A DNA stretch of 64,000 nt from an uncultured Planctomycetota bacterium (GTDB lineage Bacteria > Planctomycetota > Planctomycetia > Gemmatales > Gemmataceae). The stretch is taken from the NCBI GenBank assembly GCA_963849325.1, contig CAWKHF010000005.1, positions 896,001 through 960,000 on the forward strand, given 5' to 3'. A program made the position numbers and the translations under genes. Below the pieces are notes generated by a model. It was not told the origin of the DNA. It did no database searches and saw only the letters and a program-made list of their open reading frames with translations. This document shows positions 12,146-16,425 of this stretch, one piece after another (the first letter of the stretch is position 1; each line of letters starts with the position of its first letter).

Positions 12146-12565
12146 TCAGGCGTCGGCCCAGTTCTCCAGTTGCAGCCCCGGCACCAGGCGAAAGTGGCGC
12201 AGATTGCGGGTGACGAGTGTTGCTCGGTGTGCCAAGGCGATGGCGGCGATGAGCAGGTCGGCGCGACCGATTTTCTTGAGTTTCTTGTCCTGCCGCAAGC
12301 GGTCGAATTCAGCGGCAGATGCGGCATCGATGGAGATGGTGTCGAACTCGTTCAGGTTTTGCTCGGCTTCTTGCAGCAACTGCTGGGCACGTTCCAGTTG
12401 TGCCCCGTCGGCGGCCTTGAGCAGGAAATCCCACCGCCCCCGAAGAACCTCGATTCGGGAAACAATGGTTATGGCGATCAGGTCCGTTGTTGCCAGGGCA
12501 CGCGCCGCCACTCGGGGATGAGCGTGGATAAGCAGCGTCACGGTATCGGTATCGAGGAGGATCAT
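12146..12565 (-). CDS. vapC: PIN-domain VapC-type toxin
   Basis: ILLDTD...E...DLLIAAIALAHRATLVTRNLRHF..VPGL.LENW. Confidence 0.93.
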   Translation of the reverse strand: MILLDTDTVTLLIHAHPRVAARALATTDLIAITIVSRIEVLRGRWDFLLKAADGAQLERAQQLLQEAEQNLNEFDTISIDAASAAEFDRLRQDKKLKKIGRADLLIAAIALAHRATLVTRNLRHFRLVPGLQLENWADA

Positions 12566-12933
12566 TCACCTTCCTCGGTCATCGGCCGACCGCGTTGCCG
12601 ATAAATCTCCTTGAGGAACTCATCAAGGTCCGGATGGTCCTTCCAGGCGCCGATCACGGACAGGATAGCTTCTTTGCTTGATTTCCGCGGCGGCGTGCGC
12701 AGCCAATCTTGCAACGCGGACTTCAAGAATCGCCATTCGCCGCCGATCCGTCGGCCCGGGATGCCGTCGCGGCCAATCATCCCCCGCAGATCGGCTTCCG
12801 CCACGCGCAGATACGCCGCCACCTCAGCCAGCGTCAACACTTCGCTGGACGTATCCGGAGGGGGAGGCGCCATCGGCGGAGACGGTGGCTGGGAAGGTTT
12901 CGTTGGACTCGGTTTCGCTTTCGTTCGCGGCAT
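12562..12933 (-). CDS. Putative antitoxin with excisionase-like HTH (HTH_17)
   Basis: EVLTLAEVAAYLRV...IPGRRIGGEWRF; own RBS (aaggaagg) and ATG at 12933; ATGA overlap with vapC. Confidence 0.85.
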   Translation of the reverse strand: MPRTKAKPSPTKPSQPPSPPMAPPPPDTSSEVLTLAEVAAYLRVAEADLRGMIGRDGIPGRRIGGEWRFLKSALQDWLRTPPRKSSKEAILSVIGAWKDHPDLDEFLKEIYRQRGRPMTEEGE

Positions 12934-12962: not shown

Positions 12963-14540
12963 TTAACTCGCCGCGGCCGGCTCGCGCGGCGGCGCCTCGG
13001 TCGAGTGGATGCGCTGCTCGGCGGCCATCCGCAGGGCGATGCGGTTGATGACCTGCAAGAACGCCAGGGCGCTGGCCTCGATGATGTCGGTGCTCACGGC
13101 CCGGCCGTTGATGACGCTTGCCGTTGTACTCGGCCTCGATGTGGGCCTCGCCCTGGGCGTCCTCGCCGACCGTCACGCTGCGAATGCGGTAATCGCGCAG
13201 CTTCACCTCGATGCCGGTGATCTGCTCGATGGCCTTGAACACCGCATCGACCGGCCCGTCGCCGAGGCTGGCCTGGCGGACGATGGTGCCGTCCTGGTGC
13301 CACAGGCACACCGCCGCCGACGGGATCGTCGCCGAGCCGGCGTTGCACGTCACCGCCTCCAGCGTCCACAGCGTCGGGCCGCTGTGGATCTGCGCCTCGG
13401 CCAGCGCCTCAACGTCGGCGTCGTAAATCACCTTTTTGCGATCGGCCAACGCCTTGAAGCCGTCGAAGACCTTCTGCAACTGCTCTTCGTTGAGGTGATA
13501 GCCCAGGTCGAGGACGCGCTGGCGCAGGGCGTGCCGGCCGCTGTGCTTGCCCAGCACCAACTCCGTCTGCGCCACGCCGACGTCCTCGGGGTTCATGATC
13601 TCGTAGGTGGTCCGCTCCTTGAGCATGCCGTCCTGGTGGATGCCCGCTTCGTGGGCGAAGGCGTTCTGGCCGACGATGGCCTTGTTGCGCTGCACCTGGA
13701 TGCCGGTGACGTGCGACACCAGCCGGCTCGTCGGGTACAGCTTCTTGGTGTTGATGTGCGTCGTGACCTGGAAGTAATCCTGCCGCGTGCGCACGGCCAT
13801 GACGACCTCTTCGAGGGCGCAGTTGCCGGCGCGTTCGCCGAGGCCGTTGATGGTGCATTCGACCTGGCGGGCGCCCTCGGCGATGGCGGCGAGGCTGTTG
13901 GCCACGGCCATGCCGAGGTCGTTGTGGCAGTGGACGCTGATGATCGCCTTGTCGATGCCGCGGACGTGCTTCTTGAGGTGGGCGATGGCGGCGGCGTACT
14001 GGCTCGGGCACCGCGTAGCCGACCGTGTCGGGGATGTTCACCGTCGTCGCGCCGGCCTCGATGGCGCGCTCGACCACTTCGGTCGAGGAAATCCAGTTCG
14101 GTGCGGGCGGCGTCCTCCGGCGAGAACTCGACGTCGTCGCAGTAGCCGCGGCGCGCTGGACGCCCTCGACGGCGCGGCGGATGATCTCTTCCTTGGCCAT
14201 CTTGAGCTTGAATTCGCGGTGGATGGCGCTGGTGGCGAGGAAGACGTGGATGCGCGGCCGGGCGCAGTCGCGCAGGGCTTCGCCGGCGCGGTCGATGTCG
14301 GCGGCGTTGCAGCGGGCCAGGCCGCAGATGATCGGCCCCTCGACCTCGCGGGCGATGGCCTGCACCGCCTCGAAGTCGCCCGGCGAGGCGATGGGGAAGC
14401 CGGCCTCGATGACGTCCACGCCGAGATCCTTGAGGGCGTGCGCCACCTGGAGCTTCTCGGCCAGGTTCATGCTGGCGCCCGGGCGATTGCTCGCCGTCGC
14501 GCAGCGTCGTGTCGAAGATGATCAGGCGGTCGTCGGTCAT
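12963..14540 (-). CDS. leuA: 2-isopropylmalate synthase (several indels)
   Basis: IFDTTLRDGEQSPG, IEAGFP, NIPDTVG, GERAGN, NAFAHEAGIHQDG, LGKHSGR, GDGPVDA; true-frame stop TAA at 12965-12963. Confidence 0.96.
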
Positions 14541-14555
14541 GGTCGGACTCCGGCG

Positions 14556-14589
14556 AAGAAAAAAGCCCTGGGATTTCCGTCCCAGGGCT
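14556..14589 (-). terminator. Attenuator (intrinsic terminator) upstream of leuA
   Basis: Minus strand AGCCCTGGGA-cggaaa-TCCCAGGGCT followed by a T-run, ending about 15 nt before the leuA ATG. Confidence 0.9.
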
Positions 14590-14628
14590 GTGCTCAGCAA
14601 GCGCGAAGGAAACACCGGCTGGAGGCGC

Positions 14629-14691
14629 CTAGGACCCGTCTCCGCGAAGGAGAAGCGTGTCGAGCAGGCTGAAAAGTAGCTGAGTCGTCAT
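14629..14691 (-). CDS. Leu-rich leader peptide MTTQLLFSLLDTLLLRGDGS (leuL-like)
   Basis: 20 codons with 7 Leu (CTA CTT, CTG CTC, CTT CTC CTT), directly before the terminator and leuA. Confidence 0.85.
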   Translation of the reverse strand: MTTQLLFSLLDTLLLRGDGS

Positions 14692-14750
14692 GGCGGTGTC
14701 GGAAGGGCGAGGGCGTTCCGCTGTTGGTGCGCAAGAAAACCTTAGCAGAT

Positions 14751-14779
14751 AGTGTAGGGGTTCCAGGCGAGGAAGGCAA
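14751..14779 (-). promoter_or_regulatory. sigma70-type promoter for the leu leader and leuA
   Basis: TTGCCT (14779-14774), 17-nt spacer, TACACT (14756-14751). Confidence 0.6.
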
Positions 14780-14806
14780 CGGCTCTTTTGTCTTTACCCG
14801 CTTGCT

Positions 14807-16314
14807 GGGTGGGCAGCTGTTACTTGGGTGGGTTTTTGGCTTGTCGCGCGATAGGTTGACTCCCAGGTCCAAAACGCACACGCCTTCTTCACACTCAGGA
14901 GTTGCATCATGGCTTCCCAGCACGGTCCTTCCCCAGTGGCCCCATCCCGCCAAGAACGCATCGAAGCCATCCTGCAACAGCTGCGACCCCAGATCGAACA
15001 GACCGTTCGCCAGCTTGTCGAAAGGGCCGTCGATGTTCCCGAGGCGGAGGAATTCGGCGCCATCGACTTCGAGTTCCGCGATGCCGGGCAGAAGCTGGTC
15101 AACCACGTCCGGCAAGCCAGCGTGGCGAGCCGGAAAAAAAGGGCTACGTAGGCTCCAGCGTACGCTGCACCTTGTGCGGGCACACGGCCAAGTTTCATTC
15201 CTACCAGTCCCGGCGGCTGTTGACCGTGCATGGCGAGGTGCGTCTGGAGTGCGCCTATTACTACTGTGCCCGCTGCCACCACAGTTGCATCCCCTACGAC
15301 GAGGTACTGGGCTTGCACGATGCCATCAGCCCCGGCTTGCGGCCGCTGGTCTGTCTGGCCGGGACGATGGTGCCCTTCGGCGATGCGTCCGAAGACATCC
15401 TCCGGCGTTTCTCCGGAGTGCGTCTGTCGGCTTCCTCGGTATTGCGCTGTACCCAAGGGGAGGGCGAACGCTTGCGGGCGCAGCAGAAAGCGGGGCCGAT
15501 GGTCGAGCCGACGCAGCCCGAACTCCTCTGGACCGCACCGCGAAGGGAAGGGCAGCCCGCGGCCTATGTCGGCCTGGACGCCTTCAGCGTGCCGATGCAG
15601 GGGATCGGAGCAGGCAAGGCCGAGCATCGCATGCTCTACACCGCGTTGTTGTACACGCCGCAAAAGGAGCACAGCCGCTACCTGGTCGATTTCGACCTCG
15701 ATGTGCTGGCGGAGCAAGTGCGCGCGCAGGCCCGGGCGTTGGGCGTTACGCGGGTGAGTGACTTGATCGCCGTGACCGACGGCGGCAACGGCCTGGAAGA
15801 AGCCTTGCAGCGTCACCTGGCCGAGAACCTGACGACTATCCTGGATTGGTATCACGCCGCCGAACACCTCTGTGCCTTCGCCAACGTCTGGCATGCCGGC
15901 GAGGAAACGGCCCGCGTGCTGTGGCAGCAGCAGGCCAAAGGAATCCTCTATGAGCAAGGGGGCGAAGCCTTGCTCACCTTTTTGCGGGCGTTGGACTTGC
16001 CGCCGGAGACATCGGCAGAGGTTCACGAGGAACTGCGGAAGCTGATCGGCTACTTCGAGAACAACCGGCATCGCACCGATTATCCGCGCTATCGTCAGAA
16101 GGGCTGGGACATCGGCAGTGGGCCGACGGAGGCGGGCTGCAAGATCATCGGTGAAAGGCTCAAGGGTTCGGGCATGCGCTGGGTAGAAGACGGTGCGGCG
16201 ACCGTGGCGGCCCTACGGGCTTTATATGTCAGTGGCGGCAAGGTGTGGGACGGCTTCTGGTCGCAGCCTCACCGCGCCGCCGCGTAAAGTCACCCAAGTA
16301 AATGATTCACACCC
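14807..16314 (+). mobile_element. Insertion sequence, ISKra4-like, 1508 bp
   Basis: IRL GGGTGGGCAGCTGTTACTTGGGTG vs reverse-complemented IRR GGGTGTGAATCATTTACTTGGGTG (19/24); direct repeat CCGCTTGCT at 14798-14806 and 16315-16323. Confidence 0.92.
14909..16287 (+). CDS. ISKra4-family DDE transposase in two ORFs joined by a -1 shift at A7G (15134-15141)
   Basis: CxxC...YYYCxxC, DGGNG, ILDWYHAAEHL, YF.NN..R.DY..YR..GW.IGSG..EAGCK.I...RLK.SGMRW. Confidence 0.9.
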
Positions 16315-16425
16315 CCGCTTGCTTCCCGTGCCGTATGTCTACCTACGACGCCGGGACGGTCTTGCAATGGGCGACGGTTCGGGGAAAGATGGAAGACGAC
16401 TCTCCCTCTTGGCCGCGGCGCGGAG

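Follow-up and report, generated by a model that had tools for sequence, protein, structure and literature searches.

The region upstream of leuA, the gene for 2-isopropylmalate synthase, in an uncultured planctomycete of the family Gemmataceae very probably contains a classical leucine-sensing, ribosome-mediated transcription attenuator, and the evidence for this reading is computational throughout. The DNA analysed, referred to below as the window, is a stretch of 64,000 nucleotides, on the minus strand of which a promoter, a short leucine-rich open reading frame (ORF), a switchable terminator hairpin and leuA itself follow one another in this order. The same reading had been proposed in an earlier note made from the letters of the window, and it is now supported by conservation, by covariation, by the synonymous leucine codons of related leaders and by a ribosome-footprint model. 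The leuA leader is a real and well-conserved case of a familiar mechanism, of which no description was found for this phylum.

Organization of the leuA Leader

The promoter TTGCCT-N17-TACACT is present as the earlier note had given it, with the -35 hexamer TTGCCT at 14774–14779 and the -10 hexamer TACACT at 14751–14756 (minus strand, as for all leader features below) separated by a 17-nt spacer. At the same place the congeners possess the arrangement TTGCAT-N17-TA(C/A)ACT, that is, TTGCAT at the position of the -35 hexamer and either TACACT or TAAACT, at equal spacing, at the position of the -10 hexamer. Judged by its hexamers and spacing this is a putative sigma-70-like promoter; a generic promoter scan listed 0 sites in the region, the pair TTGCCT/TACACT being below its threshold because only 8 of 12 consensus positions match. 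Transcription would start near 14744, about 7 nt past the -10 hexamer, and the untranslated stretch ahead of the leader ATG comprises about 55 nt.

The leader ORF, MTTQLLFSLLDTLLLRGDGS (14629–14691), consists of 20 codons and a TAG stop codon and begins with the ATG at 14691, before which no Shine-Dalgarno motif is found in the sequence. The stop codon (14629–14631) is located inside region 2, the 5' strand of the antiterminator (GUCCUAGG, 14628–14635). A small hairpin UCUCC-UUCGC-GGAGA (14639–14653), which overlaps Leu codons 14 and 15, is present in the minimum free energy (MFE) folds, and its CUCC...GGAG is discernible in most congeners. The spacer between the leader ORF and the terminator hairpin is 39 nt long. 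A box, GCTTGCTGA (14594–14602), located 3' of strand 2 of the antiterminator and ahead of the terminator, is near-invariant in the genus (alignment A1). None of the helices tried accounts for the conservation of this box, and a mini-hairpin GCUG/CAGC considered as its cause was rejected, as it has no covariation support.

The intrinsic terminator hairpin (14564–14589) is characterized by a 10-bp stem and a 6-nt loop. Its letters are AGCCCTGGGA-CGGAAA-TCCCAGGGCT and then TTTTTCTT, with 7 G-C among the 10 pairs, and as read along the minus strand the hairpin runs AGCCCUGGGA-CGGAAA-UCCCAGGGCU, followed by UUUUUCUU. Region 3 (CCUGGGAC, 14579–14586) comprises most of the terminator 5' arm and at the same time the 3' strand of the antiterminator. 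The U-run UUUUUUCUU (14556–14564), whose first U is the last base of the stem, corresponds to T columns that are invariant or nearly so in alignment A1. Terminator and U-run (14589–14559) end 19 nt ahead of the leuA ATG (14538–14540), and the Shine-Dalgarno-like GGAG of leuA (14548–14551), kept as CGGAG in the congeners, is situated outside the hairpin.

Leader Peptide and Its Leucine Codons

The sequence confirms the seven leucines previously ascribed to the 14691–14629 leader. They occupy codons 5, 6, 9, 10, 13, 14, and 15 (14647–14679) and are encoded, in order, by CTA, CTT, CTG, CTC, CTT, CTC, and CTT, four of the seven (CTA and three CTT) being rare. The impression that these four are uncommon was right, since CTT, CTA, and TTA represent 4.7%, 2.1%, and 1.0%, respectively (7.8% together), of the leucine codons of the genome, as determined from a reference set of 924 long ORFs with high GC3 of the same genome, in which leucine makes up 10.9% of the residues. 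In the 21 related leaders, with peptides of 16–28 residues, 67 of 160 leucine codons are CTT, CTA, or TTA, and rare leucine codons are over-represented in the leaders relative to the long ORFs of the genome.

Among congeners the start, frame, length, and stop of the leader ORF are all kept, its length being 19–20 codons in 10 out of 10. In a positional comparison restricted to the nine congeners having 20-codon leaders, position 5 is leucine in all nine by means of six different codons, and position 10 is leucine, again in all nine, by means of five. Leucine maintained at fixed positions through five or six synonymous codons points to selection on decoding and not on RNA sequence. When the 266-nt intergenic stretch was subjected to dinucleotide shuffling, an ATG ORF of 10–40 codons with at least 7 leucines was obtained in 2 of 5000 shuffles.

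Beside the leucines, an aspartate (GAC or GAT) at leader codon 11 (14659–14661, minus strand) is kept within the leucine run LLDxLLL in several families. This codon is able to pair with GUC of segment 2, in a helix without clear covariation.

Covariation of the Competing Helices

Pairing was evaluated in alignment A1, which contains 21 leader sequences. The 10-bp terminator stem with its T-run, reported in the earlier note, has compensatory changes in relatives: 99% of the cells of the helix are paired and 7 of the 10 pairs are changed on both sides, where slid control positions reach at most 70% pairing. The antiterminator, formed by 14635–14628 with 14586–14579, competes for the 5' arm of the terminator, and the pairing of the segment over the leader stop with this arm, suggested in the same note, was confirmed by compensatory changes as well. 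In this helix 92.9% of cells are paired and 3 of 8 pairs (12 cells) are changed on both sides. None of 500 shuffles equals the helix in pairing or in covariation score, the best slid control attains 64%, and RNAalifold recovers the antiterminator unaided after removal of the terminator 3' arm.

An extended 1:2 hairpin appears in the MFE fold of this window. As a conserved anti-antiterminator or pause hairpin that includes the regulatory codons it is not supported, its pairing and covariation across A1 being not above controls (71.1% of cells paired versus 68.9% in shuffles, with 32 of 500 shuffles attaining at least its value). Conserved unpaired positions are few, and the whole element is about 150 nt long.

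Folding and the Proposed Mechanism

The terminator hairpin has a calculated energy of -19.5 kcal/mol versus -14.9 kcal/mol for the flanked 2:3 (antiterminator) duplex, and in folds of the full-length leader the terminator always wins at equilibrium, so the switch must be kinetic, as in known attenuators. Modelled with a ribosome footprint of 29 nt and the RNA cut ahead of the terminator 3' arm, this leader has the antiterminator in its MFE structure both without a ribosome and with the footprint on any Leu codon, while a footprint on the stop codon abolishes it. The folding of the alternative structures, proposed earlier as a check, is in agreement with the attenuator: the antiterminator is free as long as the ribosome stands on a Leu codon and blocked once it stands on the stop.

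The same behavior is observed in most relatives. When the ribosome is placed on a middle Leu codon, 20 of the 21 leaders have the antiterminator in their MFE structure; the number is 17 for the last Leu codon, 16 when no ribosome is present, and 1 for the stop codon. The full-length MFE structure contains the terminator in 20 of the 21. The stop codon is inside segment 2 or a few nt from it in 19 of the 21 leaders, and in the other two the ORF crosses segment 2.

In the proposed mechanism the leader ORF is presumably translated, the hairpin would terminate transcription, and a response to leucine would follow, the target being a monocistronic leuA. A ribosome would translate the 20-codon leader behind RNA polymerase. 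With charged tRNA-Leu plentiful it would reach the TAG within segment 2 and cover this segment, and because segment 2 is then covered, segments 3 and 4 would fold as the terminator and RNA polymerase would halt at the U-run. With tRNA-Leu scarce the ribosome would stall at a Leu codon of the leader; of these codons, seven in number, four are rare, and all precede segment 2 by 14 nt or more. Segment 2 would then pair with segment 3 once the latter is transcribed, the terminator would fail to form, and leuA would be transcribed.

Distribution among Relatives and within the Phylum

A search with the LeuA fragment gave a match in 28 of 30 relatives' genomes. The orthologous set comprises 21 leuA loci from the same order with LeuA 64–97% identical to the query fragment, the weak or truncated loci L027–L029 having been left out of the relatives' count. 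Alignment of the leuA upstream regions, recommended in the earlier note, revealed a Leu-rich upstream ORF (uORF) at 20 of the 21 loci and stems that covary; these 20 loci and this window share a hairpin of 10–12 bp with a T-run, at overall lengths of 144–159 nt. The exception, L019, has the hairpin with T-run and a uORF with only 3 leucines. The device is absent at five loci with more distant LeuA, four of them belonging to genus g12 and one being a second copy in genome G010.

The closest named records come from Limnoglobus sp. and from metagenome-assembled genomes (MAGs) of Gemmataceae, with 68–72% identity over the LeuA fragment; the assignment to the family was based on these matches and on kinship labels. 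Among 80 named loci, 75 of which were assessable, 13 passed an automatic rule that combines an ATG uORF of at least 25% leucine with a perfect-stem terminator. Twelve of the 13 belong to Planctomycetota (Planctomycetaceae, Fuerstiella, Schlesneria, Pirellulaceae, and Tepidisphaerales) and one is a Verrucomicrobia MAG; no proteobacterial or other non-PVC label is found among these 13 flagged loci. Further named cases were recognized by eye in Limnoglobus, Gemmataceae, Thermoguttaceae, Phycisphaeraceae, and Isosphaeraceae records. In an even sample of the phylum an N-terminal LeuA match (E of at most 1e-20) was found in 45 of 150 other genomes, and of the 42 assessable loci 8 passed the automatic rule, some of them weakly, with 4 more recognized by eye.

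The covariance model R1 matched 69 of 151 genomes at E of at most 0.001 in an even sample of the class. The match is full-length, defined as spanning model positions 1–155, in 51 of the 151, and the remaining matches are partial ones to the terminator only. Among the best 29 R1 loci, 27 are situated directly before leuA with a Leu-rich uORF, and the other two are partial matches. Many leaders of the class end in GRS or RGS before the stop, with GGUCUUAGG opposite the terminator arm CCCUGAGAC, which is the same design with the stop codon in the antiterminator.

Several observations were made on individual loci. At L062, a Verrucomicrobia MAG, the uORF MIRSGLLRRLLLLLLLEG and a short terminator are located upstream of leuA, and this candidate leader suggests that the device reaches beyond Planctomycetota. 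In L037, L045, and L063 (Pirellulales/Thermoguttaceae MAGs) the stretch from the leader terminator to leuA includes another conserved element, approximately GUGUUGCC..GGCCGACCAAGGGUCGGC, for which Rfam gave no match at E of at most 0.01. In three planctomycete MAGs, L037 (3558–3642), L043 (3526–3613), and L045 (3498–3582), leuA is immediately followed by a tRNA-Leu(UAA) gene of the same orientation, which the leader could co-regulate.

A broader proposal, which is possible but somewhat less than an even bet, treats these leaders as one undescribed, phylum-wide leuA-leader family of Planctomycetia, Phycisphaerae, and possibly Verrucomicrobiota, which would work as a minimal two-state device with the stop codon in the antiterminator strand (often within the palindrome CCUAGG) and with no anti-antiterminator. 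If it has no anti-antiterminator, an untranslated transcript would read through by default, and the terminating ribosome would be the sole OFF signal.

Genomic Context

In the 8.16-Mb genome (G000) a strict scan, requiring a perfect stem of at least 7 bp and at least 5 T in 8, detected 296 terminator-like hairpins on both strands. Of these, 26 (8.8%) are located at most 120 nt after the end of a long ORF on the same strand, compared with 494 of 14800 random positions (3.3%), an enrichment of 2.7-fold; terminators being sparse and modestly enriched, their routine use by the organism is only weakly shown. When combinations of uORF, terminator, and gene were ranked genome-wide, the leuA leader came first, and no other candidate found preceded a gene of amino-acid biosynthesis. 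The next-best candidates were set aside, as they precede genes without amino-acid biosynthesis assignment, one with no NCBIfam match and one for an ArnT-like glycosyltransferase. Model R1 matches this genome once. The genes ilvB, leuC, and leuB are found on other contigs with neither leader nor terminator in their upstream regions, and for this reason leuA would be the only gene controlled. In public sequencing runs a fraction of at most 0.24 of the sampled words of the window was found, in all cases as soil-metagenome contigs.

The leuA gene (12963–14540, minus strand) is read through five single-base indels and was identified by NCBIfam 2-isopropylmalate synthase models, with best fragment E-values of 6e-56 and 2e-116. 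The frameshifting indels, located by comparison with three congeners at approximately 14483, 14151, 14084, 14008, and 13119, are mostly in G/C runs. As leuB and leuC, on other contigs, are likewise split into frames, and the genome is 84.7% complete in 14 contigs, the five indels are probably assembly errors of long-read type and not signs of a pseudogene.

An insertion sequence of the ISKra4 family (14807–16315, 1509 bp) is located 28 bp upstream of the leuA -35 hexamer and is flanked by an 8-bp target duplication, CGCTTGCT, at 14799–14806 and 16316–16323. Three more copies with at least 99.7% identity are present on contigs C1, C2, and C6. The element is transcribed away from leuA, and the N-terminus of its transposase (14909–15151) is in a frame other than that of the main ORF (14902–16287). 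The insertion has left both the core promoter and the A-rich stretch immediately before it undamaged. On the other side, directly 3' of leuA (within 12146–12900), there is a VapC toxin ORF (12146–12565, minus strand) preceded by an excisionase/MAD1-type helix-turn-helix segment, which a frameshift fuses to the leuA 3' end in the ORF list.

Comparison with Known Systems

The enterobacterial leuL leader uses rare CUA codons. With leuL (RF00512), trpL, hisL, pheL, thrL, and ilvL the planctomycete leader shares a short ORF rich in codons for the end product, rare Leu codons included, and with classical leader-peptide attenuators it shares an intrinsic terminator just before the first biosynthetic gene and an exclusive antiterminator whose 5' strand would be occluded by a ribosome at the leader stop. 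In contrast to these systems, the Leu codons are spread over codons 5–15 with no single run, the stop codon sits within the antiterminator strand, and leuA alone would be controlled; the 1:2 anti-antiterminator of the classical model is unsupported here. An Rfam cmscan of 14300–15000 at E of at most 10 gave four weak unrelated matches and no leader family, with no match of the leuA leader to RF00512 (Leu_leader) or to the T-box model.

Outside Proteobacteria two systems are the closest for comparison. The actinobacterial LEU element, as outlined in the relevant portion of Seliverstov et al. (2005, PMC1262725), likewise has a leader ORF containing Leu codons ahead of leuA, in a phylum of high GC that is not proteobacterial; as outlined there, it is a pseudoknot without a terminator, in whose base stem Leu codons are paired to the Shine-Dalgarno box of leuA, whereas the planctomycete leader has a hairpin with a U-run, and its GGAG (14551–14548) is 3' of the hairpin and unpaired in folds. 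According to the same portion of that paper, mutations of the Leu codons in the predicted leuA leader of Streptomyces coelicolor did not behave as in classical attenuation, an example that, as far as that account goes, the prediction of attenuators from sequence can fail. In the ilv-leu operon of Staphylococcus aureus, as summarized in an excerpt of PMC5794164, a Leu-rich attenuator peptide is described; the likeness to this excerpt consists in a Leu-rich leader peptide that attenuates branched-chain amino acid genes outside Proteobacteria, and the difference in another phylum and another operon.

In the literature searched, leader-peptide attenuation was found documented only for Proteobacteria, Actinobacteria, and Firmicutes, and a planctomycete leuA leader or attenuator is undescribed as far as found, the cross-phyla attenuator survey of Lopatovskaya et al. 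(2010) being outside that search. In the accessible portion of PMC4833913 Planctomycetes are mentioned only for the spacing between leader gene and structural gene. These searches and the absence of an Rfam match agree with the view of the earlier note that such a device had not been described in planctomycetes.

Alternative Explanations

The conserved leader might instead switch between terminator and antiterminator on binding of a protein, tRNA, or small molecule, the Leu-rich ORF being incidental or serving some other function, an argument that has been made for the actinobacterial LEU element. This is compatible with the leader ATG that has no Shine-Dalgarno motif, with the genus-conserved box between the helices that no helix matches, and with the S. 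coelicolor mutants, which in the portion of PMC1262725 mentioned above are at odds with classical attenuation. It is nevertheless unlikely: leucine is kept at fixed positions via up to six synonymous codons, pointing to decoding, the stop codon is in segment 2 or a few nt from it in nearly all leaders, no T-box or riboswitch of Rfam is matched, and the element is short, with few conserved unpaired positions. The peptide pattern LLDxLLL...GDGS recurs and the terminator would yield a discrete transcript of about 185 nt, as might be expected if the ORF were a separate gene encoding a small hydrophobic peptide, or the transcript a small RNA, with a terminator of its own and located before leuA by chance. 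The linkage to leuA across many families (27 of the best 29 R1 loci) speaks against this, as do the conserved C-terminal codons, which coincide with segment 2, itself co-varying with the terminator arm, and the remaining peptide positions, which vary freely except for leucine and aspartate, making this explanation very improbable.

That the ORF, the hairpin, and their complementarity are products of chance in GC-rich intergenic DNA is hardly credible. Individual measures on this leader do look like chance, since a generic terminator scan found 1 minimal hairpin against a mean of 1.3 in shuffled sequence, and the equilibrium fold of the whole leader, with a z-score of just -0.67, is uninformative; however, the Leu-rich ORF arises in very few shuffles, and conservation together with covariation over 21 genomes and across the class contradicts a chance origin.

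Significance

Leader-peptide attenuation is a textbook mechanism, and to specialists the mechanism itself would be unsurprising. With an example that is conserved and co-varies across Planctomycetota, attenuation would reach the PVC group and Rfam would gain an RNA family now missing from it, and the leuA leader would serve as a ready regulatory part for organisms that are poor in genetic tools.

[quoted passage not shown] (2014), as cited in PMC6212462, reported the two processes to be separate in Gemmata obscuriglobus, and this has been disputed (PMC6554331 and PMC5394234). The leuA leader would provide a simple genetic read-out of how closely ribosomes follow RNA polymerase in Gemmataceae. 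Under the broader family proposal given above, the device would need the first ribosome less than about 70 nt behind RNA polymerase, and its conservation in Gemmataceae would be genetic evidence for coupling in a family that has been claimed to keep transcription and translation apart.
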